NCBI GenBank assembly: GCA_003599635.1
Contig: QZIX01000009.1
Location: 66,065-130,064 of the forward strand
Length of the DNA: 64,000 bases
Direction of reading: 5' to 3'
Origin: Candidatus Parcubacteria bacterium
GTDB taxonomy: Bacteria; Patescibacteriota; Patescibacteriia; Buchananbacterales; SURF-54
Of this stretch, positions 40,074 to 63,140 are shown piece by piece. Each line of letters starts with the position of its first letter. Within the stretch, counting starts at the first letter, position 1. The notes beneath the pieces are model-generated. The model saw nothing but the letters and a program-made list of their open reading frames with translations, was not told where the DNA came from and ran no database searches. A program made the position numbers and the translations under genes.

Positions 40074-40077
40074 AAAT

Positions 40078-43168: not shown

Positions 43169-43186
43169 AAACGTTATTGTGTATTC

Positions 43187-43480: not shown

Positions 43481-43567
43481 AATTCGTAACCTCCTAATTG
43501 TCCAAGAACGATTAATTTGATATGATGTTATTTTATAGAGAATTGTTCGATTGTCAAGAAAAATTTT

Positions 43568-44881: not shown

Positions 44882-45466
44882 ATGGCGACTCCCGAACAAT
44901 TTATTTCAATATTTTCGCAAGAAATTGCTAAACTGGCAACGACGACCGCGCCAAAAGCCGCCCAGACAGCAATTGCCGATTCTTTTTCAAATTGGGACTG
45001 GTCTATTCCCACCTGGGATCTGATTATTTTGGTAATTTTTTTTCTGACCGTATTTTTTTACAGTTTCGCCCTGGGCCGGGACAGAATTTTGGGCATATTA
45101 ATTTCCACCTACATTGCCCTGGCAGTCAGCTATTCAATGCCTTTTACGGATGAATTGCAGAAGGCAATTGATCAAACCGGTTTTCTTGCTTTTAAAATTT
45201 CAGCCTTTGTAATAGTTTTTTTCCTGATGTTTTTTTTGTTATTTAGAAGCCGTCTGATCCAAAGCGTAAGCGTCTTTTCCGGAAATTCATTGCAGATAAT
45301 TTTTTTTAGTTTTCTCCTTGTCGGTCTTTTGACCAGCATAATTTTATCTTTTCTTCCGCAGCAGGCTTTGGACAACCTTACTTTTTTCACTAATTATATT
45401 TTTTTATCCGACATAGCCAGATTTTTATGGATAATTCTGCCCGTTATGGCACTGGCATTTTTTTAA
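44882..45466 (+). CDS. Hypothetical polytopic membrane protein; first gene of the surface-modification operon
   Basis: Four or five TM helices; its stop lies 4 nt before the next ATG. Confidence 0.45.
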   Translation: MATPEQFISIFSQEIAKLATTTAPKAAQTAIADSFSNWDWSIPTWDLIILVIFFLTVFFYSFALGRDRILGILISTYIALAVSYSMPFTDELQKAIDQTGFLAFKISAFVIVFFLMFFLLFRSRLIQSVSVFSGNSLQIIFFSFLLVGLLTSIILSFLPQQALDNLTFFTNYIFLSDIARFLWIILPVMALAFF

Positions 45467-45469
45467 TTT

Positions 45470-47050
45470 ATGGCTAAAGATTTGAATATTAAAATTATAC
45501 AATTTTTTGTTTTGGCCGTTGTTTTAATCGGTGTATTCATTACAGTTTACAGTCCGCATTTATACTACGACTATTATTATCCCTTGCACTATGATGAGTG
45601 GCTGAATATAAGCGAAGCTAAAAAGATAAATAATGACGGTTTTTTTGAATCTGTTTTTTACCCTTACTTTAAACAAAAGATAGTCAGGATGAATCTGGTT
45701 TACGGTTTCGATATTTTTCTTGCCGTCTTAGAGTCAATATCCGGAAATCTGATTCCGGTTTATCAGTATCTTCCGGCGGCAACCGCGGTTTTAAACGCAA
45801 TAATTTTGTTTTGGCTGGCAAAAACAATTTCCAAAAGTTTTATCTTTTCGCTTACGGTCGTTATTTTTTTCGCTTTACTGCCAAGCAATATCAATATACT
45901 GGGAAACTGGTTTTTTTTACCGTCGACATTTTCATATTTTTTTGTTTCAGCCATCATTCTGTTTTTCAGCCGTTATTTGGCGGAAGAGGACGGAAAATAC
46001 TTTTTTTTGGCTGTAGTTTTTTTAACCGTTCTGTTCCTGGTTTACCCTCTTAATGCCGTTTTTCTGCTGCCTGTTCTGTACATTGCCTATATTTTGGCGG
46101 GAAAAAAATCACCGGCAAAACAGTTTAAATTATTTTCGTTGTTCGTTATTTCCCTTGTGCCTTTTTTATTATTATTTTTTGCCCTCGCCTTTAAAGTGGG
46201 CCTTCCGCATGAACAGCAGAGCGGGAATTTATTTTTAATTTTTAAAAATGCCATAGTCTACAACAGCCGTTCGCAGGGACTTTTGCTTAATGATTTATAT
46301 TTTATGCCGCCTTTTTTTTATTATGTGCTTATGGTTTTTTCCTCTGTCGCCATAGTGAAAAATTACAAAAACAAGATGTTTTATGTCTTGAATTTATTAT
46401 TTTTCTGGTCATTGGGCAACTTGCTGCTTTTCAAGATGTTTAATTTCACTCTTCTGTCATCCTATCACCGAATATTGTATCTGAGCTTTATAGTTTTTTG
46501 TCTGCTGGCGCCGTTGGGAATAAAAAATACGGTCGAACTGCCTGGCAAAATGAAAAAAAATATTTTTGCCGGAAAAATTTTGAAATTCATGGCTGCCGCG
46601 GCGTTTATATTTTACATTGTATCAAGCATGGGAAAAAATTTTTTTCCCTCCGATAACTTAAAGCCGGTTAAGTTGATTGATGCTAAAAATTCGGCCATGC
46701 TTGAATTTATTAAAGAAAATTATTCCAAAAGAGTGGTGCTTGCGCCTCAGCTTTTGTCCGTCGTCATTTATCCCCTGACCGCGAATTTCGCGGCTTCATT
46801 GGCCAATGTTCCGTTTTTTTCTCTTGAAAAAAGAGGGGATTACTTTTTCTCGGCAGAAAAGAGGATGTTTAATGATATAAACAACTATGATCCTTTTTCC
46901 GCTTTTCTGATGCAAAGCGACGAGTCAAGAAAAAAAATTTTGGAATTGTATGATTTTGATTTGGTCTATTCGCCCGGCAGAATTGATTCGCAGCTTCTGA
47001 ATCCAATATTTGCTCAAGACGGCCAGTTTGTTTACGAAGTAAAAAAATAA
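45470..47050 (+). CDS. GT-C-fold polytopic glycosyltransferase-like membrane protein (ArnT/PMT/GT39-like)
   Basis: More than 10 TM helices, an acidic HYDEW motif in the first extracytoplasmic loop, and a large C-terminal soluble domain. Confidence 0.5.
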   Translation: MAKDLNIKIIQFFVLAVVLIGVFITVYSPHLYYDYYYPLHYDEWLNISEAKKINNDGFFESVFYPYFKQKIVRMNLVYGFDIFLAVLESISGNLIPVYQYLPAATAVLNAIILFWLAKTISKSFIFSLTVVIFFALLPSNINILGNWFFLPSTFSYFFVSAIILFFSRYLAEEDGKYFFLAVVFLTVLFLVYPLNAVFLLPVLYIAYILAGKKSPAKQFKLFSLFVISLVPFLLLFFALAFKVGLPHEQQSGNLFLIFKNAIVYNSRSQGLLLNDLYFMPPFFYYVLMVFSSVAIVKNYKNKMFYVLNLLFFWSLGNLLLFKMFNFTLLSSYHRILYLSFIVFCLLAPLGIKNTVELPGKMKKNIFAGKILKFMAAAAFIFYIVSSMGKNFFPSDNLKPVKLIDAKNSAMLEFIKENYSKRVVLAPQLLSVVIYPLTANFAASLANVPFFSLEKRGDYFFSAEKRMFNDINNYDPFSAFLMQSDESRKKILELYDFDLVYSPGRIDSQLLNPIFAQDGQFVYEVKK

Positions 47051-47053
47051 TTT

Positions 47054-48250
47054 ATGCATTTACTTATAGTAACCCCTTATTTATATCCCCAGGGCAGCGG
47101 AGTCGGAAGGATATCATATTCTTTGGCCAGGGAACTAAGTAAAATCGGCCATCAAATTACTGTTTTTAGCACCGGGAAAAATTCAGACGTTGAAGAAAAC
47201 GGCATCCGCATCATAAAAAAGAAACCTTTTTTTCACTTCAGCAACACTCCTGTACGTCTGCGTTTGTTTTTCGACCTTGTTTTTTTGATTAAAAAAGGCA
47301 GATATGATTTTATTCTGGCTTTCACGCCAGTTCCTTATTATATGGACATGGCGTCATTGGCAGCCAGAATTTTATCCGTGCCGTTTTACGTTTCTTATAA
47401 TACCTATAGCTTTAAAAGAGAGCGGACGCTGCTTGATTTTATTACCTGGCTGTATTCCGCAATCGTTGAAAGATTTTCCTTGGGCTATGCCAGAAAGATT
47501 TTTATAAACAGTAAGAGGTTAAAACAGGCAGATATTCTACCGCAGTATAAAAATAAACTCGCTTACATAACTCCCGGAGTTGATCGCAGTCAGTTTCAGC
47601 CGACAAGCAGCCGTTCCGGTTCAGCCGGTTATATGTTATATGTTGGTCCTTTAAACAAAGGACAACGCTGGAAAGGGATAGATTATTTGATTTCCGCCAT
47701 GGTTAAAATAAAAAAAGAATATCCTGAAATAAAATTAAAAATTGCCGGTGGCGGCAATCTGCGGGCTTATTATCATAAAATTGTCAGGGCAGGCAAATTG
47801 GATGGCAATATAGAATTTGTCGGATTTTTGCAAAATGAAGATCTGGTAAAAATTTATCAGAATTGTCGTTTTCTGGTTTTGCCGTCTTACGGGAAAGCCG
47901 AACTTGTACCGACCGCCATTATTGAAGCTTTTGCCTGCGGTAAAACAGTAGTTTCAACATTTTCCGCCGGTATACCTTTTTTAGTGACAGATGGAACAGA
48001 CGGAAAATTAATTGAGCCAAAAAACATTGACCAATTGGCGAAAGCGATGGCAGAATTATGGATAAATGACAATTATCGCCGGAAACTTGAAGAGGGGGCG
48101 ATAAAAAAAACAAAGGAATTTTCCTGGACTAAAATGGCCGAAGATCTTCTGGCGCAGGTAAAACATAATATAACAACAGCCGAATTAAAACAATGTCAAT
48201 TGAAACAAAATTGCAAAAAATCCGATTTTTGGCAAACGCAAGAATTTTAG
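47054..48250 (+). CDS. Glycosyltransferase family 4 (GT-B fold)
   Basis: E-X7-E region AIIEAFACGKTVVSTFSAGIPFLVTDGTDGKLIEP. Confidence 0.8.
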   Translation: MHLLIVTPYLYPQGSGVGRISYSLARELSKIGHQITVFSTGKNSDVEENGIRIIKKKPFFHFSNTPVRLRLFFDLVFLIKKGRYDFILAFTPVPYYMDMASLAARILSVPFYVSYNTYSFKRERTLLDFITWLYSAIVERFSLGYARKIFINSKRLKQADILPQYKNKLAYITPGVDRSQFQPTSSRSGSAGYMLYVGPLNKGQRWKGIDYLISAMVKIKKEYPEIKLKIAGGGNLRAYYHKIVRAGKLDGNIEFVGFLQNEDLVKIYQNCRFLVLPSYGKAELVPTAIIEAFACGKTVVSTFSAGIPFLVTDGTDGKLIEPKNIDQLAKAMAELWINDNYRRKLEEGAIKKTKEFSWTKMAEDLLAQVKHNITTAELKQCQLKQNCKKSDFWQTQEF

Positions 48251-49236
48251 AATTCTTTAAGGCGGAGGAAAATAAATTAACCGCCGGATTAAACGCTGAG
48301 ATCAGAAATATAATGTCACAGCTGGAAAGGTTTTGTCTTGGCGGGAAAAAAATAAGAATAGCACTTGCTTATTTTTCCTATCTGGCCTGCGGGGGCAAAT
48401 CCAAAAAAAAGTTTTTCAGAACCGCGGTTTCTTTGGAATTATTTCATAATTTTTTTCTGATTCACGATGATATTATCGATAAAGATAATTACAGGAGAAA
48501 TAAACTGACTTTTCATAAATACTTCGGTGAAAAAAGAGGCGATTTGCACTATGGTCTGTCCCTGGCAATTATTGGTGCGGACCTGTTGAATTTTTTTGCT
48601 TACAAAAACTTAGATAATTCCAGATATCCGGAAAAGGTTAAAAATAATATCAGAAAACTTTTTTCTGTTTTTCTTTCCAGAGTTTGTTTAGGAGAATTTT
48701 TGGATATATATTTTGCTAAGGTTAAAAAGGTTAGCGCTAAAGAGCTGCTTTTCGGATACGACTGCAAGACGGGCGGCTATACTACGACTTTGCCTGTCGT
48801 TTTCGGCGCCCATTTGGCCGGGGCCAGTTACAGACAGATTAAGGAATTAACGGAATTTTCCGGACCTTTGGGGCAGGTTTTTCAGATAAAGGATGATATT
48901 CTGGACGTTTTCGGAAACAAAAGCAAATTCGGCAAGGATCCGGGTTCAGACCTTTTGAACGGAAAAAAAACAATTTTGCTGGATTTTGTAATGAAAAATG
49001 CCGATTGCCGGGAGAAAAAATATCTGAATTCTCTGGCAAATAAACGGAAGTTGTTATTTAAAGATATTTTTAAAATAAGAAAAATAATAAGAAAAAGCGG
49101 CGCCATAACCTATTTTGATAAATACACCGAAAATTTGGTCTTTAAAGCGAAAGCCAAAATCAACAAAAAAAATTTCAACCGTAACGTTTGTGATTTACTG
49201 GCTTTGGCAGATTATTTTTTAATAAGAAGTTCCTGA
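48193..49236 (+). CDS. Polyprenyl diphosphate synthase (trans-isoprenyl, short-chain type)
   Basis: First DDxxD motif LIHDDIID with aromatic residues at -4/-5, second motif FQIKDDILD. Confidence 0.75.
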   Translation: MSIETKLQKIRFLANARILEFFKAEENKLTAGLNAEIRNIMSQLERFCLGGKKIRIALAYFSYLACGGKSKKKFFRTAVSLELFHNFFLIHDDIIDKDNYRRNKLTFHKYFGEKRGDLHYGLSLAIIGADLLNFFAYKNLDNSRYPEKVKNNIRKLFSVFLSRVCLGEFLDIYFAKVKKVSAKELLFGYDCKTGGYTTTLPVVFGAHLAGASYRQIKELTEFSGPLGQVFQIKDDILDVFGNKSKFGKDPGSDLLNGKKTILLDFVMKNADCREKKYLNSLANKRKLLFKDIFKIRKIIRKSGAITYFDKYTENLVFKAKAKINKKNFNRNVCDLLALADYFLIRSS

Positions 49237-49237
49237 T

Positions 49238-50071
49238 ATGATAAGCGCAATAATTCCTTGCTTTAATTGTATCCGTTCCCTGGACAAGACAATTGCATCC
49301 CTTATGAAGGCAAATGTTAAGTTAGAAATTTTTATTATTGACGATGGATCCTCTGACGCTTCGGCTGATTTTGCCAGAAAAAAATATCCCGGCATAAAAC
49401 TTCTGATCAACGAAAAAAACAGAGGACGCGCATTTTCGCGCAACAGGGGAATGGCGGCTGCAGGAAATAATGTTATGTTATTTATCGATTCTGATGTCTG
49501 GCCGGGTAATGGTTGCCTGGAACAATTATATGAAAATATATCCGATAATGATATCGTTTATCCGAAACTGGCTTACGAGGATGGAGCCGTTAAACATCCC
49601 AAAGATGACAATAGCAGTTATCCTTATGATGCCGGCTGTTTTATGATAAAAATGCCGGACGGAAAAGACGTTAAATTTGATGAGAATTTTAAATATCTTG
49701 AAGACCAGGATTTTTTCATCAGATGTCATTTAAATAATTTTAAGGCAAAATATGTCAGGTCGGCCGTGGCTTTTCACTCTAACAGACAAACGACAAGCAG
49801 CGGCAGTGAAAAATTTTATCAGGAAATGTGCGATATTGTATATGGTATGAATAAATACCGCGGGAAAAAAATAAAACCGGTCCACAATTTCAGCCGAGTC
49901 AATCTGGTTAAAGGTCTGGTTGCAGCTATTTTCAATTATAACTATTTTTTTTACGGCCCCAGCGCTTCGGTATTAAAAAAAATCAGCCGGCTTTTTTTAA
50001 AACACAAAAAATTTGAAATTAGCAATTTCAAGATGTTGAGGCTGTATTTTAAGGCTTTGAAAAATTTATGA
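49238..50071 (+). CDS. Glycosyltransferase family 2 (polyprenyl-phosphate sugar synthase-like)
   Basis: IIPCFNCIRSLDKTIASL ... FIIDDGSSD ... DSD motifs of GT-A fold. Confidence 0.8.
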   Translation: MISAIIPCFNCIRSLDKTIASLMKANVKLEIFIIDDGSSDASADFARKKYPGIKLLINEKNRGRAFSRNRGMAAAGNNVMLFIDSDVWPGNGCLEQLYENISDNDIVYPKLAYEDGAVKHPKDDNSSYPYDAGCFMIKMPDGKDVKFDENFKYLEDQDFFIRCHLNNFKAKYVRSAVAFHSNRQTTSSGSEKFYQEMCDIVYGMNKYRGKKIKPVHNFSRVNLVKGLVAAIFNYNYFFYGPSASVLKKISRLFLKHKKFEISNFKMLRLYFKALKNL

Positions 50072-50841
50072 TAAAAATACTGGATTTTGCAAAATTGATA
50101 CGTTTTAACGAATGGCTGGACAAATTATGGCTGTTAATCATCTCTTTGGTTGTTTTGCTTATGGCCACCGGAAAAAATTTTTATTTTGAAGCTGTGGCTC
50201 AGGCTGCCTATCTTTTTTTTCTTCTGGCTTTCGGATTTTTGCTCAATTCAGTCTTTGAAAAGGATATTGACCTTGCCGTCGGCAAGAACCGGCATCTTGA
50301 TCTTTTTACGCCCGGACAGATAAAATTATTTATCCTTTCATTTTTACTGATCGTTTCGCTTTTGCCTTTGTTTTTTAATAACGGCTTGGCGCAGTTATAT
50401 AATTTAATGATGATAATTCTGGCTGTTTTTTATTCGATGCCGCCCCTTTATTTTAAAAACAAACCGGTTTTAGGCATTTTGGTTCCATCATTTCTGCAGG
50501 GGCCTTCAACACTGCTGTTTTTAAGCGTTAGTGACATAAATACTGTTTATCTGGGTCTTATTGGGGCAATAGTTCTGGCCGTTAACATCTATATGCAATT
50601 GATTCATCAGGTGAGAGACTTTGAAAACGACAAAAAAATGAATCTGAAAACTTTCGCCGTTTTTTTTGGTTCTGAAACGACCTATTTTATGATAAGATTG
50701 TTTATAATCATAGTGGTTTTTTTATTGCTGGCGATTTTTTTCCTGTTTGATGATTTTTTCTTTTCATTATTTGCCGTCCTGATCTACCTGATTTTTCTGA
50801 TCCCGTCTTTGGCCAGTCATTTTCAGCTTAAAAAATTATGA
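50068..50841 (+). CDS. UbiA-family prenyltransferase
   Basis: Seven or eight TM helices; Asp-rich motifs NSVFEKDIDLA (cf. NDxxDxxxD) and VRDFEND. Confidence 0.55.
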   Translation: MIKILDFAKLIRFNEWLDKLWLLIISLVVLLMATGKNFYFEAVAQAAYLFFLLAFGFLLNSVFEKDIDLAVGKNRHLDLFTPGQIKLFILSFLLIVSLLPLFFNNGLAQLYNLMMIILAVFYSMPPLYFKNKPVLGILVPSFLQGPSTLLFLSVSDINTVYLGLIGAIVLAVNIYMQLIHQVRDFENDKKMNLKTFAVFFGSETTYFMIRLFIIIVVFLLLAIFFLFDDFFFSLFAVLIYLIFLIPSLASHFQLKKL

Positions 50842-51866
50842 TCGTTAATTTTTTAAAAAATTTATTTGGCATAATTCACTATAACAACAAAATAGATTTT
50901 TTTATTTACAAAAAATTGCGTTCATATTTGCCGAAAAATCAATATCCCAGGCCGCCCAAATCTATAGCCATCGACCCTTGTTCGGTCTGCAATTTAAGTT
51001 GCCCTGCCTGCGTCGCCTGCAAATCCACTCCCGGCTTTGTTTCGGCTAAGCTGAGTTTTGACAAATTTAAATTAATGCTTGACAAAATGCCTTTCGCCAG
51101 GAAGTTGTTGTTGTGCAATTGGGGAGAGCCTTTTTTAAATGATGATATTTTTAAAATGATAAGGTATGCCAAGACAAAAAAATTGTATGTTTCTTTATAC
51201 AGCAATCTTAATATTAAAAAGAACGACTGTTTTTATACTGAGCTTGCGTTGTCGGGACTTGATGATCTTTTAATTTCCATTGACGGTATCACCCAGGAAA
51301 ATTATGAAAAATTCAGGGCCGGCGGGAATTTGTCGTTGGTTTTTGAAAATATAAAAAAAATAAATGCCGCCAAGGAAAAAAAATCATCCAGTCTGCCGAA
51401 ACTTTACTGGCATTTAACCATCAACAAATATAATGAAAAAGAAATTACTCAAGCCGCGGCCAAGGCCGAAGAACTGAAAATGCAGTTTATGCCCAACTAC
51501 ATTATTTTGTATCATCGGGTAATACCGATAGATGAATCTGAAATGGCCGAAAAAAACAGCTACTGGCTGCCGGCAAAAAATAAAAATTATTATCATTGGC
51601 AGAAAAACAAACCTTACCGGCTGGATTATCCCTGCCAGAATCTTTTTTTAACAGTTTTTTTTGATCCTGAAGGCAACTGCTTTCCCTGCCGTTATCTTTC
51701 CGATGTCAAAGATTCATTCGGCAATATTTTAAGAGAGGATTTTTTTGACATCTGGTACGGAAAAAAATTTCTTTCTGCCCGAAGTCTGTTTTTGAAGAAT
51801 AAAACATTGCCCGTCAATAAAGCTGCTACTATTTGTGACAGCTGCGTCATGCATAAAAAATATTGA
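50838..51866 (+). CDS. Radical SAM protein with C-terminal SPASM/twitch-like Cys cluster
   Basis: CNLSCPAC (Cx3Cx2C) near the N-terminus; C-terminal CQNLF...GNCFPCRYL...ICDSCVMH. Confidence 0.7.
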   Translation: MIVNFLKNLFGIIHYNNKIDFFIYKKLRSYLPKNQYPRPPKSIAIDPCSVCNLSCPACVACKSTPGFVSAKLSFDKFKLMLDKMPFARKLLLCNWGEPFLNDDIFKMIRYAKTKKLYVSLYSNLNIKKNDCFYTELALSGLDDLLISIDGITQENYEKFRAGGNLSLVFENIKKINAAKEKKSSSLPKLYWHLTINKYNEKEITQAAAKAEELKMQFMPNYIILYHRVIPIDESEMAEKNSYWLPAKNKNYYHWQKNKPYRLDYPCQNLFLTVFFDPEGNCFPCRYLSDVKDSFGNILREDFFDIWYGKKFLSARSLFLKNKTLPVNKAATICDSCVMHKKY

Positions 51867-51882
51867 ATTAATATATGGCATA

Positions 51883-53166
51883 ATGAATAAAAACAGCAGA
51901 AAATACAGGATTCTTCTGATAAATCCTTATCAGGACATGCGCAGCTGGATTATGTACAAGGAAAGGAATTTACTTTCCCTTTCTTTTACTACCAGAACGA
52001 TAAAAGCGATTACGCCGGATGATTTTGAAGTTAAGCTAATAGATCAATGTGTTGAAGATATTGATTTTGACGCAGATGTGGATTTAGTCGGCGTGACATC
52101 ACTGACACACAACTCTTATCGCGCTTATAAAGTTGCCGAAGAGTTTAAAAAAAGAAACAAGCCCGTGGTTATGGGGGGTTATCATGCGACTTTCCTTCCA
52201 GAGGAGGCGAAAAAATGCGTAGACAGCGTTGTTATTGGTGAAGCGGAAAATGTCTGGCCGGAACTGTTGAATGATTTTAAAAACGGCAAGTTAAAGGCTT
52301 TTTATAAAAGTAACCTGCCTGCGGAATTGCAGGGCCTGCCTATCGCTGCAAAAGAAAAATATTACGGGAGTAAATACGGGAGTTTTAGCATGCCTTATCC
52401 TATGCATGCTTCCAGGGGCTGCACCAACGGCTGTTCTTATTGTTCGATTAACCGCTTTTACAACCGTACAATAAGGTATCGCCCGATCATTGAAATAATT
52501 GATGAGATAAAAAAAACAGGGTATAAATTCATTGCTTTTATGGATGATAATTTAATTCTTGACGCCAAATATGCCAAAGAATTTTTTGCCGCTTTAAAGC
52601 CGTTGAATATAAAATGGACAATGCAAACTTCAATTCTGATTGCCGAGCATGAGGAGCTTTTAAAACTGGCTGCGGAAAGCGGGTGTTTCTGCTTTTACAT
52701 AGGAGTTGAAAGTATCAACCAGCTTAGCCTTGATTCAGTAGACAAAAAAATTAACCGGGCAGAAAAATTCCTCGCCGCTTTTAAAAAAATAAAAGAATAC
52801 GAAATTAGCATTGTACTTTTGATAATCTTCGGCTTTGACGGTGATACTAAAAGCGTTTTTAATCAGACTCTGGATTTTTTAAAGGAAGCCGGAGTTTTAA
52901 ATGCCGAATTCAGCATGCTGGTGCCTTTTCCCGGGACTTTGTTGTATAAAAAATTAAAAAAAGAAAATCGTATATTAAGTTATGACTGGAAAAATTACAA
53001 TCCCGGCTGGCATTGCGTCTTTCAGCCAAAAAATATGGAGCCGCATGAATTAGAAGCGGGTTTTAAAAAAGTTTTGATTAAATATAATACTCCCTTTTGG
53101 GTTTTAAAAAGGTTAATTGCCGGCGGTAAAAAAATTTTTTTAACAATGCCCGGATACTATTTATAA
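51883..53166 (+). CDS. B12-binding-domain radical SAM protein
   Basis: N-terminal Rossmann-like B12-binding region (RILLINPY...VVMGGYHATF) and rSAM motif CTNGCSYC; an alternative start at 51835 overlaps the preceding gene. Confidence 0.75.
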   Translation: MNKNSRKYRILLINPYQDMRSWIMYKERNLLSLSFTTRTIKAITPDDFEVKLIDQCVEDIDFDADVDLVGVTSLTHNSYRAYKVAEEFKKRNKPVVMGGYHATFLPEEAKKCVDSVVIGEAENVWPELLNDFKNGKLKAFYKSNLPAELQGLPIAAKEKYYGSKYGSFSMPYPMHASRGCTNGCSYCSINRFYNRTIRYRPIIEIIDEIKKTGYKFIAFMDDNLILDAKYAKEFFAALKPLNIKWTMQTSILIAEHEELLKLAAESGCFCFYIGVESINQLSLDSVDKKINRAEKFLAAFKKIKEYEISIVLLIIFGFDGDTKSVFNQTLDFLKEAGVLNAEFSMLVPFPGTLLYKKLKKENRILSYDWKNYNPGWHCVFQPKNMEPHELEAGFKKVLIKYNTPFWVLKRLIAGGKKIFLTMPGYYL

Positions 53167-56400: not shown

Positions 56401-59400
56401 GCGCCACTCTGACCGTTTCCGGCGCCAGAACCATAACTGCTAATGCCTTAACGCTTGACAACGGCGACATAACTAACAGCGGCTCAGGCGAACAGTCAAC
56501 TACAACCCTGGCAATCACCAGTGCCATTACCTTGTCCAATAGTTCTGATATAACCTCCAATTTAAATGTTACGGCGGCAACTCTGACTTTAAATTCAGGC
56601 ACGACAATTTCAGCCAATTCCAAGGGTTACCCTTCCAATACTGGGCCCGGAACCAGGGGTACTGGCGCGGGCGGCGGTTACGGCGGCAAGGGCGGAGCCA
56701 CGGGATCAGCTACCGCAGGCAGCATGTGGGGAAAATCCTCTGATCCGGAAAATTTAGGTTCAGGCGGCGGCCTGGGATCGGCAGGTCTTCTCGGTGGAGT
56801 CGGAGGCGGTTTGATTATTATGGATATTTCGGGAACTTTTACTTTATCGGGAACTGTTTCCGCCAATGGTGGTAATGGCGCAACTTTCGGCAGTGCAACC
56901 GGCGGCGGCGGCGGTTCTGGCGGCGGCATAAATATTACAGCCGGCACCTTGGAAGGCGATGGAACAATTACCGCCAACGGCGGCAATGGCGGAGCCAGCA
57001 CAAATTTTGCCGGCAGCGGCGGCGGCGGCGGCAGAATTTTTGTAAATTATGACACTTCAACTTTTAGTAATGAAACCGGCGCCACGACAAACGGCGGGAC
57101 AGGCGGCGGCGGCGGCGGTACTAACGGCAGCACGGGCGAAGACGGCACAATCGGCTTTTTTGATGCAACTAGTAACGACATTAACATTTACGAGGGCTGG
57201 CAGTGGCAGGAAGGCGAGGACCTTGATTTCAGGAATGTCACAATCGCCAACGCGCCAAAAATAAGGACTACATCGACAGCCGATATTACTTTGACCGGTA
57301 ATCTGACAGTTTCCACTTCCACCTGGGAAATTTATTCCGGCCTTTATCCCGAAATTAAAGCCGATAATTTAAGAATAAATAACAGCGACATAACCAATAA
57401 CGGCACGGGTGAAAAATCCACAACCACTTTAAATATTACCAATGATATTACTATTTCCACTAATTCCACCACCACTTCCAATTTGGATATTACCGCCGCT
57501 TCCATGACCATTGAAGACACGGTACATCTTATTGCTGATGGTCTGGGTTACAATTCCGAAGCAGGATTAGGTGCCGGCACATCAGGTAGCGGCGGCGGTT
57601 ATGGCGCAGCTGGCGGCGCATCTGGTGACGGTGACGCCGGAGGCACTACTTACGGAGAAGCAGCTACCCCGACATTTTTGGGTTCCGGTGGCAGTAATGG
57701 CACTGTTTTAGGCGGTTACGGAGGCGGAGGCGGCGGCATGATTTATATTAAGGTGACTGGTAGTTTTATTCATAACGGAACAATTAGCAGCAAAGGCAAT
57801 GATGGCACAGCTTCAACAGCCGATGGCGGAGGAGGCGGTTCGGGAGGCACAGTCTTTATAAAAACCGGCGATACAATGTTGGGAGCCGGCAATATTTTTG
57901 CCAGAGGCGGTTCGGGAGGAAGCAGCAGCGGCGCCCAGGGCGGAGGCGGCGGAGGCGGCGGGCGCATTGCCACCCGTCAGTGTACTAACAGTTTTACCGG
58001 CACCAAATCCGCAACCGGCGGGGCGGGCGGCAGTCCTTCGGGCGTAGCCGGTTCAGATGCCGATGTCAACAATAACGATACTTTCTGTCCGCCCTCAAGC
58101 AATTTTAATTCTGCCTCGCAAAAATCAGACGGTTCCGGGGATGCTGATTTGTCTTTTACGGTTGATGATCAGGACGATTCTAACGTCAAAATGAAAATTG
58201 AATATACTTCAGACGCCAATTGTGAAACCGGCTGGTCAGACCCTACTTTAGTCGGTCCTGTAAGCGTCGCTTACGGCTCTGCGCCGGATTTGGACAATGG
58301 CAACGCCTATCAGGTAGGAACTGTAACCGGCGTATCAACAAGTTCGGGCGTCAATGATCCGGTGCAGTTTGACTGGGATTCTGATACAGATTTGCCGGCC
58401 GGCAATGTCACATATTGCCTGCGCGTTACCGGAAATGACGGCACTGACGACCAGATAAGACCGAGTACCATAACCTTAACCGTCGACAACGTAAATCCGA
58501 CTGTTAGCAGTCTGGCAATATCCACTCCGGCAGCGGCCGATTACAACGACGGCGTTGATGACTGGTATGACCAGGGACAATACGCCCAGATGGCGTTTAC
58601 TTCAACGCCGGCTGATACGAATTTGTCATCCTGCGACTGGACCTGGAACCACAGCGACGGCACAAGCTATGACTATTCGGACACCAACGTTGAAATCGGC
58701 ACGGACGGCGATATTACCACCGCCAATATGTCTGACGGCGTCATTGACCTTTCCGATGACACCGACGGCACGGTCACTTTAACCGTTACCTGTTCGGACA
58801 GTTACGGCAATTCCGGCAACAGTAATATCTCCTTCAAGTTTGACAATACTTCAGCTTCCGGGCTTGCCGACCTTGCTGTTAATGCCATTGACGATACCAC
58901 TGCTACCCTGGGCTGGACAGCTGCGTCCAGTGTCAGCAATTTCGATCATTATGAAATCTGGTACGGCACCAATGAAACCGATGTTGCCAACAGAAACGGC
59001 ACGGCCGCCGAATGGGACAATGACGATGACGGTAATTTAACCACTATTTCCACGACTTCCACGACCATAACCGGACTGACCACAGGACAAACTTATTACT
59101 TTAAAATCTGGGCCGCTGATGAGGCTAGTTTAAATAATGAGGCAACTGCCACGGGAACTTCCGGATATACGTCAAGCAATACTGCTCCCACAGGCGTTTT
59201 TACCGTCAGCTCCTTGCCAACACAAAAAACAGACGGCTCGGGCTATGTTGACATTTCCATAACAGTTGATGATGCCGATGACAATGATACCATGGCCAAA
59301 ATTGAATATGACACTGACGGCACCTGCGACGGCCCCTGGCTTGACCCGACTATTTTAGGTTTGGCAACAGCCACTTATTCTGATTCAGGCGGCGTGCCTG

Positions 59401-62400
59401 ATGTAAATAATGCTAATGACTATCAGATAGGCACCACAGCCAGTACAAGAATAATCACATCATCCGGAGCCAATACTGTTACGTTTGACTGGGATTCAAA
59501 AACTGACCAGGCATCTGCTGACGGCACTTACTGTTTACGGCTGACAGTTAACGACGATACCGCAGATCAGGCAGTACCCGCAACTCAAACAGTTACAGTT
59601 GACAATGTCAATCCAACTGTCAGCAGCCTTGCTATATCCACTCCCGCTGCTGCGGATTATAACGACGGCGCTGATGACTGGTATGACCAGGGCGACTATG
59701 CCCAGATGGCTTTTTCTTCAACGCCGGCTGACACCAATCTTTCTTCCTGCGATTGGACATGGAACCACAGTGACGGTGCCAGTTACGATTACTCGGATAC
59801 CAACTTTGAAATCGGGACAGACGGCGATATTTCTGCGGCTAATATGGTTTCCGGCGGCATAGATTTGTCGGATGACGCTGACGGCACGGTAACTTTGACT
59901 GTGACTTGCGCTGACGCTTATGGCAATTCCGGCAATACCAATATTTCCTTTAAGTTTGACAATACGGCGCCGACAGGTTTAGCCGGGCTGGCAGCCGCAG
60001 CCGACGGCGACACTGCTGTTGACTTGACCTGGACTGCTGCGGCGGAAAGTAACTTTGGCCATTATGAAATCTGGTATGGCACAAATCAAAGCGACGTTAA
60101 CGGCAGGTCGGGAACAGCAACGGAGTGGGATAATTCCGACGATGCCGCATTGGCAACTGCGGCCACTGTTACGACAAATATTTCCGGCCTTAATAATTCC
60201 TCAACCTATTATTTTAAAATATGGGCTGTTGATGATTTAGTAAATGAAGCCACTTTGGATTCAATAAGTTTTGCCTTTTCGGTTTGCGGCGATGGCGTGG
60301 CTGAAGGATCTGAACAATGCGATGCCAGCGACCTTAACAGCCAAAGTTGTGAGACTCTGGGGCAGGGATTTATAGGAGGCACCTTAGCCTGTTCGGGTTC
60401 GTGCACCTATGATACTACTGGTTGTACCAGTTCACAGGGGTGTACTACCTGCGGTAACGACGACAACGATGATGACACTGCTTTTGTCATAAGCAGCGTG
60501 GAGGTAGGGCAAATAACTGGCAGCTCGGCCCAAATTTCGTGGCTGACGAATATAGACTCTGATTCTTATGTTTACTACGGTTTGACGCCGGCTTATGAAT
60601 TAGGTTTTTATTATATAAACGAGCTGACGCAAAATCATTCAGTAACACTTGGCGATTTACAGCCAACTACGACATATTACTACAAAGTTTATTCAGTGGC
60701 CGGGAGCGATTCTGACGAATCAAACGGATCTGTTTTTGCCACTGCCCAATGTTCAGCAGGTGAACATTTAATCTGCGGCCAGACCGAAGTCGGCTTATGC
60801 ACATTCGGCTGGCGTGACTGCGTGAGCGGTTACTGGGGGGAATGCAGCGCTGTTTTACCCGCTGCTGAAATCTGCGGCAGCGGAGAGGATGAAGATTGCG
60901 ACGGTTTTATTGATCTGGATGACAGCGATTGTGCTTGCATTTCAGGCACAATTGAAACTTGCGGTGAAACTGATATCGGCTTGTGCGAATTCGGGCAAAG
61001 AACCTGCCAGGACGGCCAGTGGGGGGAATGCAGCGCTGTTTTACCCGCTGCTGAAATCTGCGGCAACGGAGAGGATGAAGATTGCGACGGCCTTTCTGAC
61101 GAAGGCTGCCCTGTCTGTGTACCCGGTAGCTTGCAGGAGTGTGGGTTAACGGATGTTGGCGAATGCGCCATGGGCATAAGGTATTGCGGTGAAGATGGTA
61201 TCTGGGGTCTTGATTGCGTTAACGCTGTTTACCCTGTTCCTGAAGTCTGCGATGATTTTAAAGATAATGATTGTGACGGTTTTATAGATATTGAAGATGA
61301 TGAATGCGAGGTTTGCAGTCCTGGCAGTATAACTGAATGTGGAACTGATATTGGCATCTGTAGGCAAGGCGAAAGGACCTGCCAGGAAAACGGTGTTTGG
61401 GGTGTTTGTTACGGTGCCATTTATCCTGCTGAAGAAGTCTGTAATGATGAGATGGATAATGATTGCGACGGGGACACGGATGAAAATTGCTGCCAGCCGG
61501 TCTGGCAGTGTTATGACTGGTCGGAATGTAAAGACAATCGGCAGGTCAGGATCTGTATTGACATAAATAGCTGTGGAGTTTCCGAAGGCATGCCGGAAAC
61601 AATCAGAGACTGCGATGTTTGCACCCCCAACTGGACCTGCGGCTGGTCCGGCGAATGCATCGGCGGTGTGGAAGATTTGGTTTGCGTTGATTTAAACGAA
61701 TGCAATAAGCAGGAAGAAGCGCCTGTGGACCACCGTGCCTGCAGCGTCTGCGGCGACGGCACCTGCGAATTGGAAGAAACTTACGATAATTGCAACATAG
61801 ACTGTCCCCAGCAGGAATGTAAAATTTCCTGCCCAAACTCGTGCTACACTGTTGATGCCGGAGAATGTACCTGCATAGTCCAAAGTGCCTGCTGCGGTAA
61901 TCTGGTGTGCGAAGAAAACGAAAATTATAATACCTGCCCGGATGACTGCACTGTAAAGCAAAAAGAGTGCGGCGATGGCATTGACAATGATAATGACGGA
62001 AGGATTGATTTTCCCGAAGATGAGGGGTGTTCAGATGACAAGGATGGCAGCGAGGCCAGCTTTAAAGAGATGATTTTAAATGCCGGTGATAAATCCAAAG
62101 ATTTAATTGGTTTTTCCGGCGCTATTTTAAACGCTGCTAAAAATGCCTTAAAGCCTGTTCAAAATTTTACAGATAATCCTGAAGTGGAAAAAGTGTCAGA
62201 ACGAGTGGTTGCACCCGCGGCCGTGGCCTTGGGCAGCGCTGCTGCCATGTCAGCTGTGAATTTCACCAGCGTATTGGCTTATCTCCAGTATGTCATAACC
62301 CAGCCCTTTTATCTGTTTGCCAGAAGGCGCCGCAAAAAATGGGGGGTGGTTTATAATTCAGTAACAAAAAAACCTGTTGATTTGGCGATTGTCCGCCTTT

Positions 62401-63140
62401 ACGACAGAACCAGCAACCGTTTGATACGGTCAAGGGTAACTGACAAAGAAGGACGGTATAATTTTCTTATTCCGCCCGGTTATTATTACCTGACAATTAC
62501 CAAACCCGATCATATTTATCCTTCAGCCGTTTTAAGGCAAAAAAAACAGGATATGCAGTATCTTGATATTTATCACGGCGAAGTAATAGATGTTATAGAC
62601 AAGGATGTTTTGATAACGGCAAATGTGCCGATTGACCCGGTCAGCGCCGTTGAAACTCCCAAAGAAGTCATCCGCAAAAGAAGGATTAAGAAATTACAGT
62701 CCGGTCTGGCATTCGGGTCAGTACCTTTGTCATTGATTCCGCTGATGATAATTCCGTCGTCGACAACACTGACTCTGTTCGGAGTTCAATCAGCCCTTTT
62801 CTTACTTTTCAGGAAACTGGCTGTAGCCGCCAAACCCAAGGGCTGGGGGATTGTCTATGATCTACATTCAAAATCTCCCCTGAAAAACGCGGTTATGAGA
62901 ATTTTTGACAAAAAGTACAACAAGCTTTTAGAAACGCAGGTGACAGACAACCGCGGCCGTTACAGTTTTTTGACCACAGGCGAAGATTATTATATAGTGG
63001 CCGAAAAAGACGGGTATAATAAATTCCAAACCGATATTCCGGCAATAAAAGAAACCGGTCAGGGAAAAATTCAGGAGTCAGAAAAAGTTGTCAGTCTTGA
63101 TATCGGGCTGGAAAAACAGCCGGGTCAGGATGTTTCTTAG
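53421..63140 (+). CDS. Giant multidomain cell-surface protein (3,239 aa)
   Basis: Continuous ORF; N-terminal TM anchor, acidic SPDE/PDEE repeat linker, two Gly-rich beta-helix-like modules, two ~370-aa tandem repeats ending in an FN3-like YYFKIWA motif (Ig-like/FN3 fold inferred), a Myxococcus-type Cys-rich repeat, four MopE-like CDG...D.DC repeats, Cys-rich modules, two C-terminal TM segments each followed by a CarboxypepD_reg/transthyretin-like domain. Confidence 0.85.
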   Translation: MMFYSEQDTMKIRKTKRKFKKRDFLILRSEKNQRRELNDFSGKEKNIDHFYTRNSRFTSPLPPAKYGFGPLLRKLEKKLILNPYSAVFYFLLIFVLVQGTFPVFSFQFKNKVWQTAADWQEWQVDNLSITENGNLVLAQYVEDEPDIEVLSENNDIAGDIQIEDGQIFPSGDESLEDDETGSMGEQISEDEDSAGDDLDDDPGAETEDILSDLQQESPDEQSPDEESPDEQAPDEEITQDEETAPDEETVPDEESDIQNGQTDYILGESSGDGLTETENDDIQNNPLPDDLANQPDEAADDNSEEIQDLSQIMDDLSVEKNDTPEDDSESENSAGDISEIIEDGVGGPEISLDYDDEILVEPPKQPAQLYQIQGSAQIYYEPEQGINQVWKDYKAKIKGSDEENRVDFTFSADNVFYTQDMSQLPVSPGIYIRANFFGTGQKTPLLGSFKIFYRDENSDEAPAEENLNLTGQEKKKFDRFSSKKLNNVQLSPEKKQQRKAKLTNKKVAPEEVIEKRNLFSRSFAVKQGSRKFNKGKVKTKLNDSSFRTEIFRYPVNYQDEEGAWQIIENDFEQIDLKDLDGKLDSGQEQDSDSQTDSNSESSQNNDNDSETANESEENAESEADFIFATLDNNWQTFFPNLASQPHRIQYQDRIIEYRIVGADQNSVARVESNKITYPEVFENVDFVYTIDNERVKEDIIVKSPVELDISYQMNVANVYFVRAEDGSINFYDQTTDDKIFSLQKPYVTDFIGQKADLDLEVEKAGENSYLIRLLNTTGVELDDPRIVYPIIIDPTTTIYAAGTNIYVDGDVWTNGTGSYTYFDVTLAAARSGFYGTNQYRSFFDFDTSGIDDDVTITDVVLKVYVAATAGGTLSVNAMAQQVGFTSSTPVVVYTDAGDGTVYYTGTPTASAYNNLDLGTTADSDLQTNLASNWFGVGATTTTGLTSINTSGMASNKPYLDVAWTYTDCVDLTIGEDTSLAEDLTCTGTITVNNGATLTVSGARTITANALTLDNGDITNSGSGEQSTTTLAITSAITLSNSSDITSNLNVTAATLTLNSGTTISANSKGYPSNTGPGTRGTGAGGGYGGKGGATGSATAGSMWGKSSDPENLGSGGGLGSAGLLGGVGGGLIIMDISGTFTLSGTVSANGGNGATFGSATGGGGGSGGGINITAGTLEGDGTITANGGNGGASTNFAGSGGGGGRIFVNYDTSTFSNETGATTNGGTGGGGGGTNGSTGEDGTIGFFDATSNDINIYEGWQWQEGEDLDFRNVTIANAPKIRTTSTADITLTGNLTVSTSTWEIYSGLYPEIKADNLRINNSDITNNGTGEKSTTTLNITNDITISTNSTTTSNLDITAASMTIEDTVHLIADGLGYNSEAGLGAGTSGSGGGYGAAGGASGDGDAGGTTYGEAATPTFLGSGGSNGTVLGGYGGGGGGMIYIKVTGSFIHNGTISSKGNDGTASTADGGGGGSGGTVFIKTGDTMLGAGNIFARGGSGGSSSGAQGGGGGGGGRIATRQCTNSFTGTKSATGGAGGSPSGVAGSDADVNNNDTFCPPSSNFNSASQKSDGSGDADLSFTVDDQDDSNVKMKIEYTSDANCETGWSDPTLVGPVSVAYGSAPDLDNGNAYQVGTVTGVSTSSGVNDPVQFDWDSDTDLPAGNVTYCLRVTGNDGTDDQIRPSTITLTVDNVNPTVSSLAISTPAAADYNDGVDDWYDQGQYAQMAFTSTPADTNLSSCDWTWNHSDGTSYDYSDTNVEIGTDGDITTANMSDGVIDLSDDTDGTVTLTVTCSDSYGNSGNSNISFKFDNTSASGLADLAVNAIDDTTATLGWTAASSVSNFDHYEIWYGTNETDVANRNGTAAEWDNDDDGNLTTISTTSTTITGLTTGQTYYFKIWAADEASLNNEATATGTSGYTSSNTAPTGVFTVSSLPTQKTDGSGYVDISITVDDADDNDTMAKIEYDTDGTCDGPWLDPTILGLATATYSDSGGVPDVNNANDYQIGTTASTRIITSSGANTVTFDWDSKTDQASADGTYCLRLTVNDDTADQAVPATQTVTVDNVNPTVSSLAISTPAAADYNDGADDWYDQGDYAQMAFSSTPADTNLSSCDWTWNHSDGASYDYSDTNFEIGTDGDISAANMVSGGIDLSDDADGTVTLTVTCADAYGNSGNTNISFKFDNTAPTGLAGLAAAADGDTAVDLTWTAAAESNFGHYEIWYGTNQSDVNGRSGTATEWDNSDDAALATAATVTTNISGLNNSSTYYFKIWAVDDLVNEATLDSISFAFSVCGDGVAEGSEQCDASDLNSQSCETLGQGFIGGTLACSGSCTYDTTGCTSSQGCTTCGNDDNDDDTAFVISSVEVGQITGSSAQISWLTNIDSDSYVYYGLTPAYELGFYYINELTQNHSVTLGDLQPTTTYYYKVYSVAGSDSDESNGSVFATAQCSAGEHLICGQTEVGLCTFGWRDCVSGYWGECSAVLPAAEICGSGEDEDCDGFIDLDDSDCACISGTIETCGETDIGLCEFGQRTCQDGQWGECSAVLPAAEICGNGEDEDCDGLSDEGCPVCVPGSLQECGLTDVGECAMGIRYCGEDGIWGLDCVNAVYPVPEVCDDFKDNDCDGFIDIEDDECEVCSPGSITECGTDIGICRQGERTCQENGVWGVCYGAIYPAEEVCNDEMDNDCDGDTDENCCQPVWQCYDWSECKDNRQVRICIDINSCGVSEGMPETIRDCDVCTPNWTCGWSGECIGGVEDLVCVDLNECNKQEEAPVDHRACSVCGDGTCELEETYDNCNIDCPQQECKISCPNSCYTVDAGECTCIVQSACCGNLVCEENENYNTCPDDCTVKQKECGDGIDNDNDGRIDFPEDEGCSDDKDGSEASFKEMILNAGDKSKDLIGFSGAILNAAKNALKPVQNFTDNPEVEKVSERVVAPAAVALGSAAAMSAVNFTSVLAYLQYVITQPFYLFARRRRKKWGVVYNSVTKKPVDLAIVRLYDRTSNRLIRSRVTDKEGRYNFLIPPGYYYLTITKPDHIYPSAVLRQKKQDMQYLDIYHGEVIDVIDKDVLITANVPIDPVSAVETPKEVIRKRRIKKLQSGLAFGSVPLSLIPLMIIPSSTTLTLFGVQSALFLLFRKLAVAAKPKGWGIVYDLHSKSPLKNAVMRIFDKKYNKLLETQVTDNRGRYSFLTTGEDYYIVAEKDGYNKFQTDIPAIKETGQGKIQESEKVVSLDIGLEKQPGQDVS
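54060..54190 (+). repeat. Tandem acidic coding repeats (ESPDEQSPDEESPDEQAPDEE...)
   Basis: GAATCGCCGGACGAACAG-like units repeated head to tail. Confidence 0.6.
58090..60250 (+). repeat. Two tandem coding repeats of about 1.1 kb inside the giant gene (each ends in an FN3-like motif)
   Basis: 58486-58720 and 59596-59830 are about 85% identical; the protein segments NVNPTVSSLAISTPAAADYNDG...YYFKIWA are duplicated. Confidence 0.8.

Follow-up and report, generated by a model that had tools for sequence, protein, structure and literature searches.

A conserved glycosyltransferase, UbiA and radical SAM operon beside a giant-protein gene in Candidatus Parcubacteria: a possible variant of lipid-linked glycosylation outside the cell

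Introduction

The combination of a lipid-linked donor with a GT-C-type transferase, sometimes together with a UbiA-family enzyme, is already known. Here we describe a locus of related composition, which lies at 44882-63140 in a stretch of 64,000 nucleotides (hereafter the window) from a Candidatus Parcubacteria bacterium (GenBank assembly GCA_003599635.1, contig QZIX01000009.1). It encodes a small membrane protein, a GT-C-like polytopic protein, a GT4 and a GT2 glycosyltransferase (GT), an isoprenyl diphosphate synthase (IDS), a UbiA-superfamily prenyltransferase, a Twitch/SPASM radical S-adenosylmethionine enzyme (rSAM) and a B12-binding radical SAM enzyme (B12-rSAM), followed by a giant protein. 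An original prediction, made from the sequence and its open reading frames (ORFs), had proposed that these genes form a system for isoprenoid-linked surface modification. The reading that we favour, with a probability of about 0.45, is that the operon encodes a lipid-linked pathway of extracytoplasmic glycosylation, a variant in which radical SAM enzymes tailor the product and the envelope or the giant protein is the probable target.

The comparison set for three-component glycosylation comprised GtrA/GtrB/GtrC, the Citrobacter ORF15 PPPRS, ORF14 flippase and ORF12 GT136, and the mycobacterial DPPRS-DprE-Emb/Aft system, the known systems with a UbiA-family enzyme combining PPPRS with GT-C (PMC11127046). 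The present locus resembles them in having a membrane enzyme that would charge a polyprenyl lipid and a polytopic GT-C-type protein that would use the lipid-linked sugar outside, in the clustering of UbiA-family and GT-C-type genes with a GT2 gene, and in that related loci carry a DPMS/ArnC-like GT2 (L097, L094; loci are cited by our handles) or a true PMT (L095). It differs from them in that its UbiA is not of the phosphoribosyltransferase subfamily, in that the operon has no phosphatase, epimerase or recognisable flippase and adds two radical SAM enzymes and, in two loci, an IDS, and in that the GT-C-like protein falls outside the described GT families.

Protein O-mannosylation offers a second point of comparison. 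In Actinobacteria and eukaryotes, Ppm1/DPM1 and PMT (GT39) mannosylate Ser/Thr-rich secreted proteins, and the locus shares with this pathway a polytopic protein with Asp-Glu in its first loop, a Ser/Thr-rich, presumably extracytoplasmic neighbour and a GT2 partner. However, the PMT_2 match is below threshold, the window GT2 is not DPM1-like, and the acceptor is a candidate only. Among radical SAM enzymes, BtrN (a Twitch dehydrogenase) and AprD4 (a diol dehydratase) tailor aminoglycoside sugars and are the best solved-structure sequence matches of the window rSAM and B12-rSAM, respectively. Identity is only about 15-20%, the rSAM is longer, at 342 aa with an N-terminal extension, the B12-rSAM keeps its B12-binding domain match, and the genetic context is lipid and glycan rather than aminoglycoside.

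Two isoprenoid lipid pathways also come close. In bacteriohopanepolyol side-chain synthesis, the HpnH rSAM, the HpnI GT2 and the HpnJ B12-rSAM act on an isoprenoid lipid and its sugar head group, which provides a working analogy for a lipid reading of the locus; scores to these enzymes are far under family cut-offs, and the CPR (candidate phyla radiation) loci have no squalene-hopene cyclase, with UbiA standing in its place. The archaeal DGGGP synthase with the Tes and Grs radical SAM enzymes is comparable in that the closest solved relatives of the UbiA include DGGGPS and that rSAM enzymes are present, yet the family cut-offs are not reached, GGGPS and glycerol-1-phosphate (G1P) dehydrogenase are not in the window, the rSAM is nearer to BtrN, and glycosyltransferases dominate the locus. 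The statement that no system of such composition has been described agrees with full-text literature searches, in which no such description was found. The locus is set apart from the described systems by a UbiA of another type that is consistently coupled to a GT2, by its pair of radical SAM enzymes, by an unclassified polytopic family and by the CPR setting next to a giant protein.

Organisation of the operon

The nine plus-strand genes of the original prediction are present at the positions given there: the ORF map holds eight genes at 44882-53166 and then the giant-protein gene, all co-directional up to 63140 (Table 1). The spacing of -4 to +4 nt assigned to them applies to five of the seven junctions, namely small membrane protein to GT-C-like and GT-C-like to GT4 (+3 nt each), IDS to GT2 (+1 nt), and GT2 to UbiA and UbiA to rSAM (-4 nt each), the last two being the ATGA overlaps already recognised at 50068 and 50838. 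It does not apply to GT4 and IDS, where the sole start, ATG 48193, gives -58 nt, nor to rSAM and B12-rSAM, where ATG 51883, the start chosen by JGI as well, gives +16 nt and GTG 51835 gives -32 nt. A 4-nt overlap of GT4 and IDS was considered and rejected, because codon 48247 is TTA and therefore no start. The promoter-like spacer of about 250 bp anticipated before the giant gene is an AT-rich stretch of 257 nt. Upstream, the region 44802..44881, with its hairpin and promoter-like consensus matches, is the probable operon start.

Conservation of the gene set

Comparison with relatives, proposed together with the original prediction, showed the gene set to be conserved together in four further low-GC metagenome loci: L002, L008/L009 (a Patescibacteria metagenome-assembled genome), L097 and L098. 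Over the five loci, including the window, the conserved core consists of the GT-C-like gene, the pair of GT2 and UbiA genes and one or more radical SAM genes of each kind, SPASM-type rSAM and B12-rSAM, at 24-60% identity; the L002 contig ends before any B12-rSAM could be seen. The GT4 is found in four of the five, the IDS in two (window and L002) and the 194-aa membrane protein in one. Recurrence in four other loci means that the gene set is more than a chance assembly. Since three of the five loci lack the IDS, it does not belong to the core. The genes dnaK and dnaJ also lie 5' of the operon in L008/L009 and are thus shared upstream with the window, so that part of the synteny reflects common descent. 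UbiA and GT-C-like genes occur together in six loci; the GT-C-like relative in L094 is a distant one.

The 194-aa protein has no match in Pfam or NCBIfam and no tblastn counterpart in L002 or L008. It was rejected as a conserved flippase for want of a homologue in these two loci and, having no counterpart in related loci, is an accessory part at most. At the far end of the clusters, the NifS, NifU and ferredoxin genes that follow in L097, and the NifS gene in L098, may serve the radical SAM enzymes by assembling Fe-S clusters and supplying electrons. In L008, the aminotransferase was considered as the partner of a BtrN-plus-transaminase amino-sugar route and rejected, since it passes the cut-off of a general family of class I/II amino-acid aminotransferases.

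Two details concern the GT-C-like gene and its surroundings. The public call of this gene in L002 is 264 aa long, while the ORF is intact at 515 aa (2288-3835, ATG 2288, Logan contig). In the gap between the GT-C-like gene and the next GT gene, a small divergent membrane ORF of 97-100 aa was noticed in L008 (5346-5645, minus strand), L002 (3813-4115, minus strand) and L098 (1073-1366, minus strand). By eye it has some three hydrophobic stretches. Its copies in L008 and L002 are 54% identical to each other and match DUF1616 exactly at the Pfam cut-off. It has no counterpart in the window, which has the 194-aa membrane protein upstream instead.

Table 1. Features of the window and gene order at related loci
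Feature or locus	Coordinates	Strand	Description
Terminator-like hairpin after dnaJ	44802-44815 + T-run	+	consensus match
TGgTATAAT extended -10-like element and TTGACA/TATAAT-like hexamers	within 44802..44881	+	consensus matches
Small polytopic membrane protein	44882-45466	+	194 aa, ~5 hydrophobic segments (hydropathy)
GT-C-like polytopic membrane protein	45470-47050	+	526 aa
GT4 (GT-B fold) glycosyltransferase	47054-48250	+	398 aa, without hydrophobic segments
Short-chain trans-isoprenyl diphosphate synthase (IDS)	48193-49236	+	347 aa
GT2 (GT-A fold) glycosyltransferase	49238-50071	+	277 aa, without hydrophobic segments
UbiA-superfamily intramembrane prenyltransferase	50068-50841	+	257 aa
Twitch/SPASM radical SAM enzyme (rSAM)	50838-51866	+	342 aa
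B12-binding radical SAM enzyme (B12-rSAM), class B	51883-53166 (ATG) or 51835-53166 (GTG)	+	427 or 443 aa
Giant protein	53424-63140 or 53421-63140	+	3238 or 3239 aa
L002			giant C-terminus, 135 nt, GT-C-like (intact), small divergent ORF, GT4, synthase, GT2, UbiA, Twitch rSAM, contig end
L008/L009, 5' part			dnaK, dnaJ, GT-C-like, small divergent ORF, GT4, B12-rSAM, GT2, UbiA, Twitch rSAM
L008/L009, 3' part			B12-rSAM (53% identical to that of the window), B12-rSAM, housekeeping aminotransferase, giant protein of 3,858 aa
L097, core			GT-C-like (36%), DPMS-like GT2, GT4 (42%), GT2 (34%), UbiA (29%), PTO1314/HpnH-like SPASM rSAM, B12-rSAM
L097, 3' genes	7890-10441		NifS, NifU, ferredoxin-NADP-reductase-like gene, ferredoxin; directly after the cluster
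L098			GT-C-like (partial), small divergent ORF, GT2, B12-rSAM, GT2 (42%), two rSAMs, UbiA, NifS (7510-7938)

The UbiA prenyltransferase and its pairing with a GT2

The UbiA matches PF01040 (2e-16, 60.4 bits against a Pfam cut-off of 34.2 bits) and has the two Asp-rich motifs of the superfamily, N60-x3-E64-x3-D68 and D184-x3-D188, in which N60, D68, D184 and D188 are invariant among 51 clade members. In motif 1 (residues 60-68, window 50245-50271), Glu replaces the first Asp in the window, L002 and L008; the UbiA proteins of L097, L098, L094, L095 and L003 keep this Asp. The clade is sparse and divergent: among 1.84 billion representatives, two proteins were found at E<=1e-30, one being the query, and 88 at 1e-10, while the sole match of a metagenome scan with the UbiA subclade was contig L009, already known.

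In the window and six other loci of the clade, among them the distant L003 and L094, the gene directly 5' of UbiA encodes a GT2, and the two often overlap; in L098 the GT2 gene is one gene removed. In the window, the ATGA overlap predicts that the GT2 is translationally coupled to UbiA. More generally, the neighbours of the clade are glycosyltransferases. L003 has the order GT21-type GT2, UbiA, GT2, and L094 the order GT2, GT2, UbiA, FG-GAP protein, with a geranylgeranyl-reductase (GGR)-like flavoprotein and an ABC-2 exporter near. L095/L096 combines a GT2, two phosphodiesterase-family (Phosphodiest) genes, UbiA, a GT4 and, immediately after UbiA-GT4 in a position comparable to that of the GT-C-like gene, a true PMT/PMT_2 GT-C. 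One clade member is a GT28C-UbiA fusion. Beside the L095 cluster, a second UbiA gene is located between two SQHop_cyclase_C (squalene-hopene-cyclase-like) genes (1019-4009, minus strand).

Against the PDB, a profile of the 51 clade members scored 69.7 bits with DGGGPS, 69.3 with AfUbiA and 69.1 with chlorophyll synthase; with DPPRS (PDB 8j8j), it scored 33.6 bits in the N-terminal half only. The best PDB matches of the single sequence were AfUbiA and MjDGGGPS. No NCBIfam cut-off was reached by the clade. The DGGGPS model NF009521 gave 23.9 bits against a cut-off of 296, and neither GGGPS nor G1P dehydrogenase is found as a partner among the called genes of the window. The window UbiA has no match to the DPPRS models at E<=0.01 and is not accompanied in the operon by a HAD or PAP2 gene for the phosphoribose phosphatase associated with that subfamily; two of the 51 clade members match the DPPRS model weakly. 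On account of these profile scores and the unreached cut-offs, the UbiA resembles by sequence the prenyl-diphosphate, O-nucleophile enzymes of the DGGGPS/chlorophyll-synthase type and not the enzyme of the UbiA-plus-GT-C systems, which uses phosphoribosyl pyrophosphate.

The window GT2 (PF00535, 3e-24) finds generic GT-A enzymes as best PDB matches and DPMS with 22 bits. L097 and L094 carry an extra GT2, the best matches of which are dolichyl- and undecaprenyl-phosphate sugar synthases (AglJ 136 bits, DPMS 1e-14, ArnC), enzymes that make the type of donor used by GT-C enzymes. The GT4 matches PF00534 (5e-32) and PF13439 (7e-16) and has orthologues at 42-51% identity in L002, L008 and L097. The IDS matches PF00348 (1e-49, 169 bits) and has, as expected from the prediction of a short-chain trans-type synthase, both DDxxD motifs (DDIID at 92, DDILD at 234). 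Its best NCBIfam matches, below cut-off, are the encapsulin-cargo polyprenyl transferase (188 bits) and archaeal IdsA (148 bits). Aromatic residues before the first DDxxD motif limit product length, and the Phe-Phe pair at -5/-4 before DDIID, in the window and L002, suggests a product of the farnesyl diphosphate (FPP) type (C15).

The radical SAM enzymes

The rSAM matches PF13186 (SPASM, 29.8 bits against a cut-off of 21.5), with Radical_SAM just below cut-off, and joins a CX3CX2C motif (C51-x3-C55-x2-C58) to a Cys-rich C-terminal domain, as SPASM/Twitch enzymes do. In this domain, C266, C284, C333 and C336 are invariant in 60 homologues and lie 18 and 3 apart within the pairs. Because only these four C-terminal Cys are conserved, the auxiliary domain is Twitch-like and not a full seven-Cys SPASM; the spacing is presumably that of the single auxiliary cluster of BtrN. 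The AlphaFold2 model is confident (predicted local distance difference test, pLDDT, 87.7) and was placed by Foldseek among SPASM/Twitch enzymes, with sugar- and peptide-acting members not separated and Tes at rank 20.

As a single sequence, the rSAM has Tes (GDGT-MAS) as its best PDB match, at 33.8 bits and over the radical SAM core only. A full-length match to the rSAM_GDGT_ether (Tes) model was not obtained: the score is 34.9 bits against a cut-off of 450, over the core only of ~490 positions. With a profile of 60 members, the best PDB match is BtrN (7e-25, 91 bits) in two stretches that include the auxiliary-cluster domain, followed at 42-51 bits by SuiB, BlsE, CteB, Tes (49), SkfB, PqqE and DesII. 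The B12-rSAM has the domain order of class B, an N-terminal B12-binding domain (PF02310, 8.5e-13, 48.6 bits) followed by the radical SAM core (PF04055, 8e-20, 72.1 bits), as far as sequence domains tell, together with PF19864 at 31.6 bits. Its best PDB match is AprD4 (4e-11), its orthologue in L008 is 53% identical, and no specific NCBIfam membership was found.

The earlier view that these two enzymes are foreign to glycosylation does not hold, as their relatives sit in nucleotide-sugar and polysaccharide clusters. Homologues of the rSAM at 35-38% identity, with B12-rSAM partners, lie among genes for NDP-sugar dehydratases, a nucleotidyltransferase, DegT, a Wzx flippase and GT4/GT2 enzymes. 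Among loci with close relatives, L012 has a Wzx flippase, a deacetylase, a DegT aminotransferase and several GTs; L017 has two B12-rSAMs, an NDP-sugar dehydratase, a nucleotidyltransferase and a Wzx flippase; and L022 has NDP-sugar dehydratases, GT4s, a B12-rSAM, an rSAM, a GT4, a PMT_2 GT-C, a GT2 and DegT. Relatives of the B12-rSAM adjoin a Twitch rSAM in the glycan clusters L017, L022 and L030. A scan of species-representative genomes gave 80 loci (L013-L092) with rSAM relatives at 28-37% identity, none of them from CPR: a B12-rSAM is a neighbour in seven, a GT4 in nine, and a UbiA or GT-C-like gene in none of the 80. These loci served as a control and do not bear on synteny. The Twitch rSAM family (~340-350 aa) accounts for at least 584 stretches in species-representative genomes and has no named function. 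It is commonest in Dehalococcoidia, Omnitrophota, Nitrospirota and Bacteroidota, with some archaea, and most copies lie outside any context that the scan recognises.

The giant protein and the GT-C-like protein

The description of the giant protein as membrane-anchored and rich in Ser, Thr and Gly is confirmed: it has two hydrophobic segments (~77-107 and 3093-3113), predicted as membrane spans, 22-28% Ser plus Thr over residues 800-2400 (1,600 residues) and 10.7% Gly overall. Residues 800-2400 are Ser/Thr/Gly/Asp-rich and residues 2400-3000 Cys-rich, with weak fn3-like, DUF7948-like and prealbumin-like matches in Pfam; the protein is presumably surface-exposed. It adjoins the operon in all three assessable loci, downstream in the window and L008 and upstream in L002, where the preserved C-terminus is 59% identical to window residues 2502-3233 (the last ~730 aa). 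It is a candidate acceptor or partner of the operon. Within its gene, the GC content rises to 0.49-0.52 at 56000-62000, against 0.35-0.38 in the operon, which coincides with the Gly/Thr/Ser/Ala/Asp-rich part, and acidic tandem repeats coding for Pro, Asp and Glu, with periods of 30 and 18, lie near the 5' end at 54066-54182.

The GT-C-like protein starts with a transmembrane segment (TM1) at residues 2-33, followed by a loop to ~115 and about ten further segments (~11 in total by hydropathy), and ends in a tail of ~135 aa without hydrophobic segments. The long first loop carries an invariant H-Y-D-E-W motif, whose D42 and E43 are the same in four homologues. GT-C enzymes share this topology, with 7-13 segments and, in the extracytoplasmic loop that directly follows TM1, a conserved acidic motif. 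Homologues are present at 36-41% identity in L008, L002 and L097 and at 30% in L098, with the distant one in L094. A homologue search with the protein itself returned the query alone, hydrophobic words having probably swamped the candidate list. The protein represents a polytopic family without a Pfam model and is, to judge by its architecture, a putative transferase using a lipid-linked donor outside the cell.

Genomic surroundings

The organism is of the CPR type that had been proposed, being a Candidatus Parcubacteria by its NCBI name, and the window belongs to a JGI metagenome contig of 162 kb. Apart from the operon, the window is of a housekeeping nature, with hrcA-grpE-dnaK-dnaJ directly upstream, pyrimidine and deoxynucleoside triphosphate (dNTP) metabolism, gyrB, secE-nusG-rplKA and an ABC transporter. 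The heat-shock block (hrcA, grpE, small HSP20, dnaK, dnaJ) occupies 35091-44665, directly 5' of the operon, dnaJ ending at 44665. A tRNA-Glu (anticodon CTC) lies at 63165-63235, 25 nt past the stop codon of the giant gene. A 782-aa DUF3160 protein (17852-20200, minus strand) is encoded inside the dNTP-metabolism gene row, which comprises dCMP deaminase, thymidylate synthase, DHFR, a kinase-like gene, dUTPase and thymidylate kinase.

Discussion

What is observed are the enzyme families, the conserved gene set, the coupling of GT2 to UbiA, a giant gene next to the operon and, for several of the closest relatives of the rSAM, a glycan context; from these we infer the substrates, the order of the steps, the GT-C activity and the acceptor of a pathway. 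The IDS would supply a short prenyl diphosphate, probably C15, and the UbiA, paired with the GT2, would place the prenyl group on an oxygen nucleophile to form the lipid moiety. GT2 and GT4 would add sugars at the cytoplasmic face, and the BtrN-like Twitch rSAM and the cobalamin-binding rSAM would tailor the product, most likely the sugar, by oxidation, deoxygenation or C-methylation. The 526-aa GT-C-like protein would then take the lipid-linked product as donor and glycosylate an extracytoplasmic acceptor, most likely the envelope or the neighbouring giant Ser/Thr-rich protein.

Several observations weigh against this proposal. The GT-C assignment is a putative one, made by architecture and gene position only: Pfam recognises the other six of the seven enzyme families originally named and gives this protein only a sub-threshold PMT_2 match (17.4 bits against a cut-off of 26.1). 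Three other members of its family have no Pfam match, the family profile has no match in the PDB, and hhalign with two real PMT proteins is not significant (E=0.08 and 0.26). The single-sequence AlphaFold2 model is unusable (pLDDT 42.8). As for the three-component scheme of polyprenyl-phosphate sugar synthase, flippase and GT-C, L097 and L094 carry a DPMS/ArnC-like GT2 that the window lacks, no flippase family was recognised, and the small membrane proteins are not shared between the loci. The role assigned to the UbiA clade in a donor pathway would be without precedent, because the clade resembles prenyl-diphosphate O-prenyltransferases and not polyprenyl-phosphate phosphoribosyltransferase. 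L097 and L098 have another type of SPASM rSAM, which is PTO1314/HpnH-like with DUF3463 and the gene of which overlaps UbiA in L098; action on the prenyl chain would fit it as well as action on a sugar. A crude scan recognised glycan genes beside only a minority of the 80 distant relatives of the rSAM. Finally, the adjacency of the giant gene is limited to three related genomes, two of which share dnaK-dnaJ, and may in part be due to common descent.

The alternative that survives best, which we consider unlikely but well short of negligible, is a self-contained modified isoprenoid glycolipid for the membrane, made with no transfer to protein and with the giant protein a mere neighbour. UbiA would then prenylate a small polar acceptor, GT2 and GT4 would add head-group sugars, the radical SAM enzymes would modify the prenyl chain or rearrange the head group, and the 526-aa protein would be a polymerase, flippase or scaffold. 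This agrees with the UbiA clade profile being closest to DGGGPS, AfUbiA and chlorophyll synthase, with the 4-nt overlap of UbiA and rSAM genes in the window and L098, and with the GT21-like GT2 genes, of the lipid-acceptor type, that flank UbiA in L003 and L094, the latter having the geranylgeranyl-reductase-like flavoprotein and ABC-2 exporter beside it. CPR bacteria are, to our knowledge, generally thought to lack fatty-acid lipid synthesis, which also counts for this alternative. The rSAMs of L097 and L098, with their DUF3463, match HpnH (88 bits) and the B12-rSAMs of L097 and L008 match HpnJ (~150 bits, though BchE scores higher); these values are, however, far under the family cut-offs and no better than those to unrelated radical SAM families. 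Against a glycolipid stand also the BtrN-like character of the window rSAM, several of its closest relatives lying in polysaccharide clusters and none of the 80 loci having a UbiA gene, as well as the DPMS-like GT2 of L097 and L094 and the real PMT of L095, which indicate polyprenyl-phosphate-sugar donors and GT-C transfer.

Extracytoplasmic glycosylation remains our preferred reading, and it has a bolder form, which we regard as rather improbable: a new pathway restricted to CPR, in which a divergent UbiA, neither of the GtrB nor of the DPPRS type, would make a short-chain prenyl-sugar carrier or anchor that the radical SAM enzymes would remodel and an unrecognised GT-C-like family would move to the giant protein. 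Still less probable is that the operon works like the mycobacterial or Citrobacter three-component pentofuranose systems, with the GT-C-like protein adding pentofuranose to an external glycan. The known pairing of a UbiA-family PPPRS with GT-C (PMC11127046) and the presence of UbiA with GT-C-like genes in six loci would suit such a system, and the two Phosphodiest genes by the L095 UbiA, which belong to the alkaline-phosphatase superfamily, could act as phosphatase. The UbiA itself speaks against it, its DPPRS match being nil in NCBIfam at E<=0.01, weak in two of 51 clade members and, by profile, 33.6 bits in the N-terminal half against ~69 for DGGGPS/ChlG; nor does the window operon contain a HAD or PAP2 phosphatase, an epimerase or a flippase.

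There is only a slim chance that rSAM and B12-rSAM are maturases of the type acting on ribosomally synthesised and post-translationally modified peptides (RiPPs), working on a small peptide or on the giant protein, which would later be glycosylated. The top Foldseek matches do include the peptide maturases SuiB, SkfB and CteB, and models for RiPP methylases (ApyD, rSAM_ocin_1) score with the B12-rSAM like others, but neither a precursor-peptide gene nor a RiPP recognition element was found in the operon, BtrN is the best sequence match of the rSAM, and its closest relatives examined lie among nucleotide-sugar genes. Least credible of all is an archaeal-type ether lipid built by a geranylgeranyl diphosphate synthase, a DGGGPS-like UbiA, a Tes-like rSAM and a Grs-like B12-rSAM, the analogy of the original prediction, for which the single-sequence matches to AfUbiA, MjDGGGPS and Tes and the 148-bit IdsA match can be cited, and against which stand a Tes match to the generic core only (34-35 bits against 450, in 342 aa against ~500), the higher profile score of BtrN (91 bits against 49 for Tes), DGGGPS models at 24 bits against a cut-off of 296, the lack of GGGPS, G1P dehydrogenase and CDP-archaeol synthase among the called genes of the 64-kb window, an IDS with an FPP-type Phe-Phe signature that is missing from three of five loci, and three glycosyltransferase-type genes left unexplained.

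CPR bacteria, Parcubacteria among them, have not been cultivated; their genomes are small, and a life attached to host cells is generally assumed. As far as we know, hardly anything has been characterised of their envelopes and giant surface proteins. With its conservation, its seven enzymes and a giant surface protein alongside, the locus would offer a concrete and testable way into the surface chemistry of CPR bacteria. In addition, it draws attention to three enzyme groups that have no known function: the polytopic family, the GT2-coupled UbiA subclade and the Twitch-rSAM/B12-rSAM pair, the last of which recurs in polysaccharide clusters of several phyla. Should the UbiA make a new lipid carrier or anchor, there would be more ways of feeding GT-C enzymes than are described, and should such a carrier or a glycolipid end up on the giant protein, it would modify a protein that is likely to mediate host attachment in episymbiotic bacteria.

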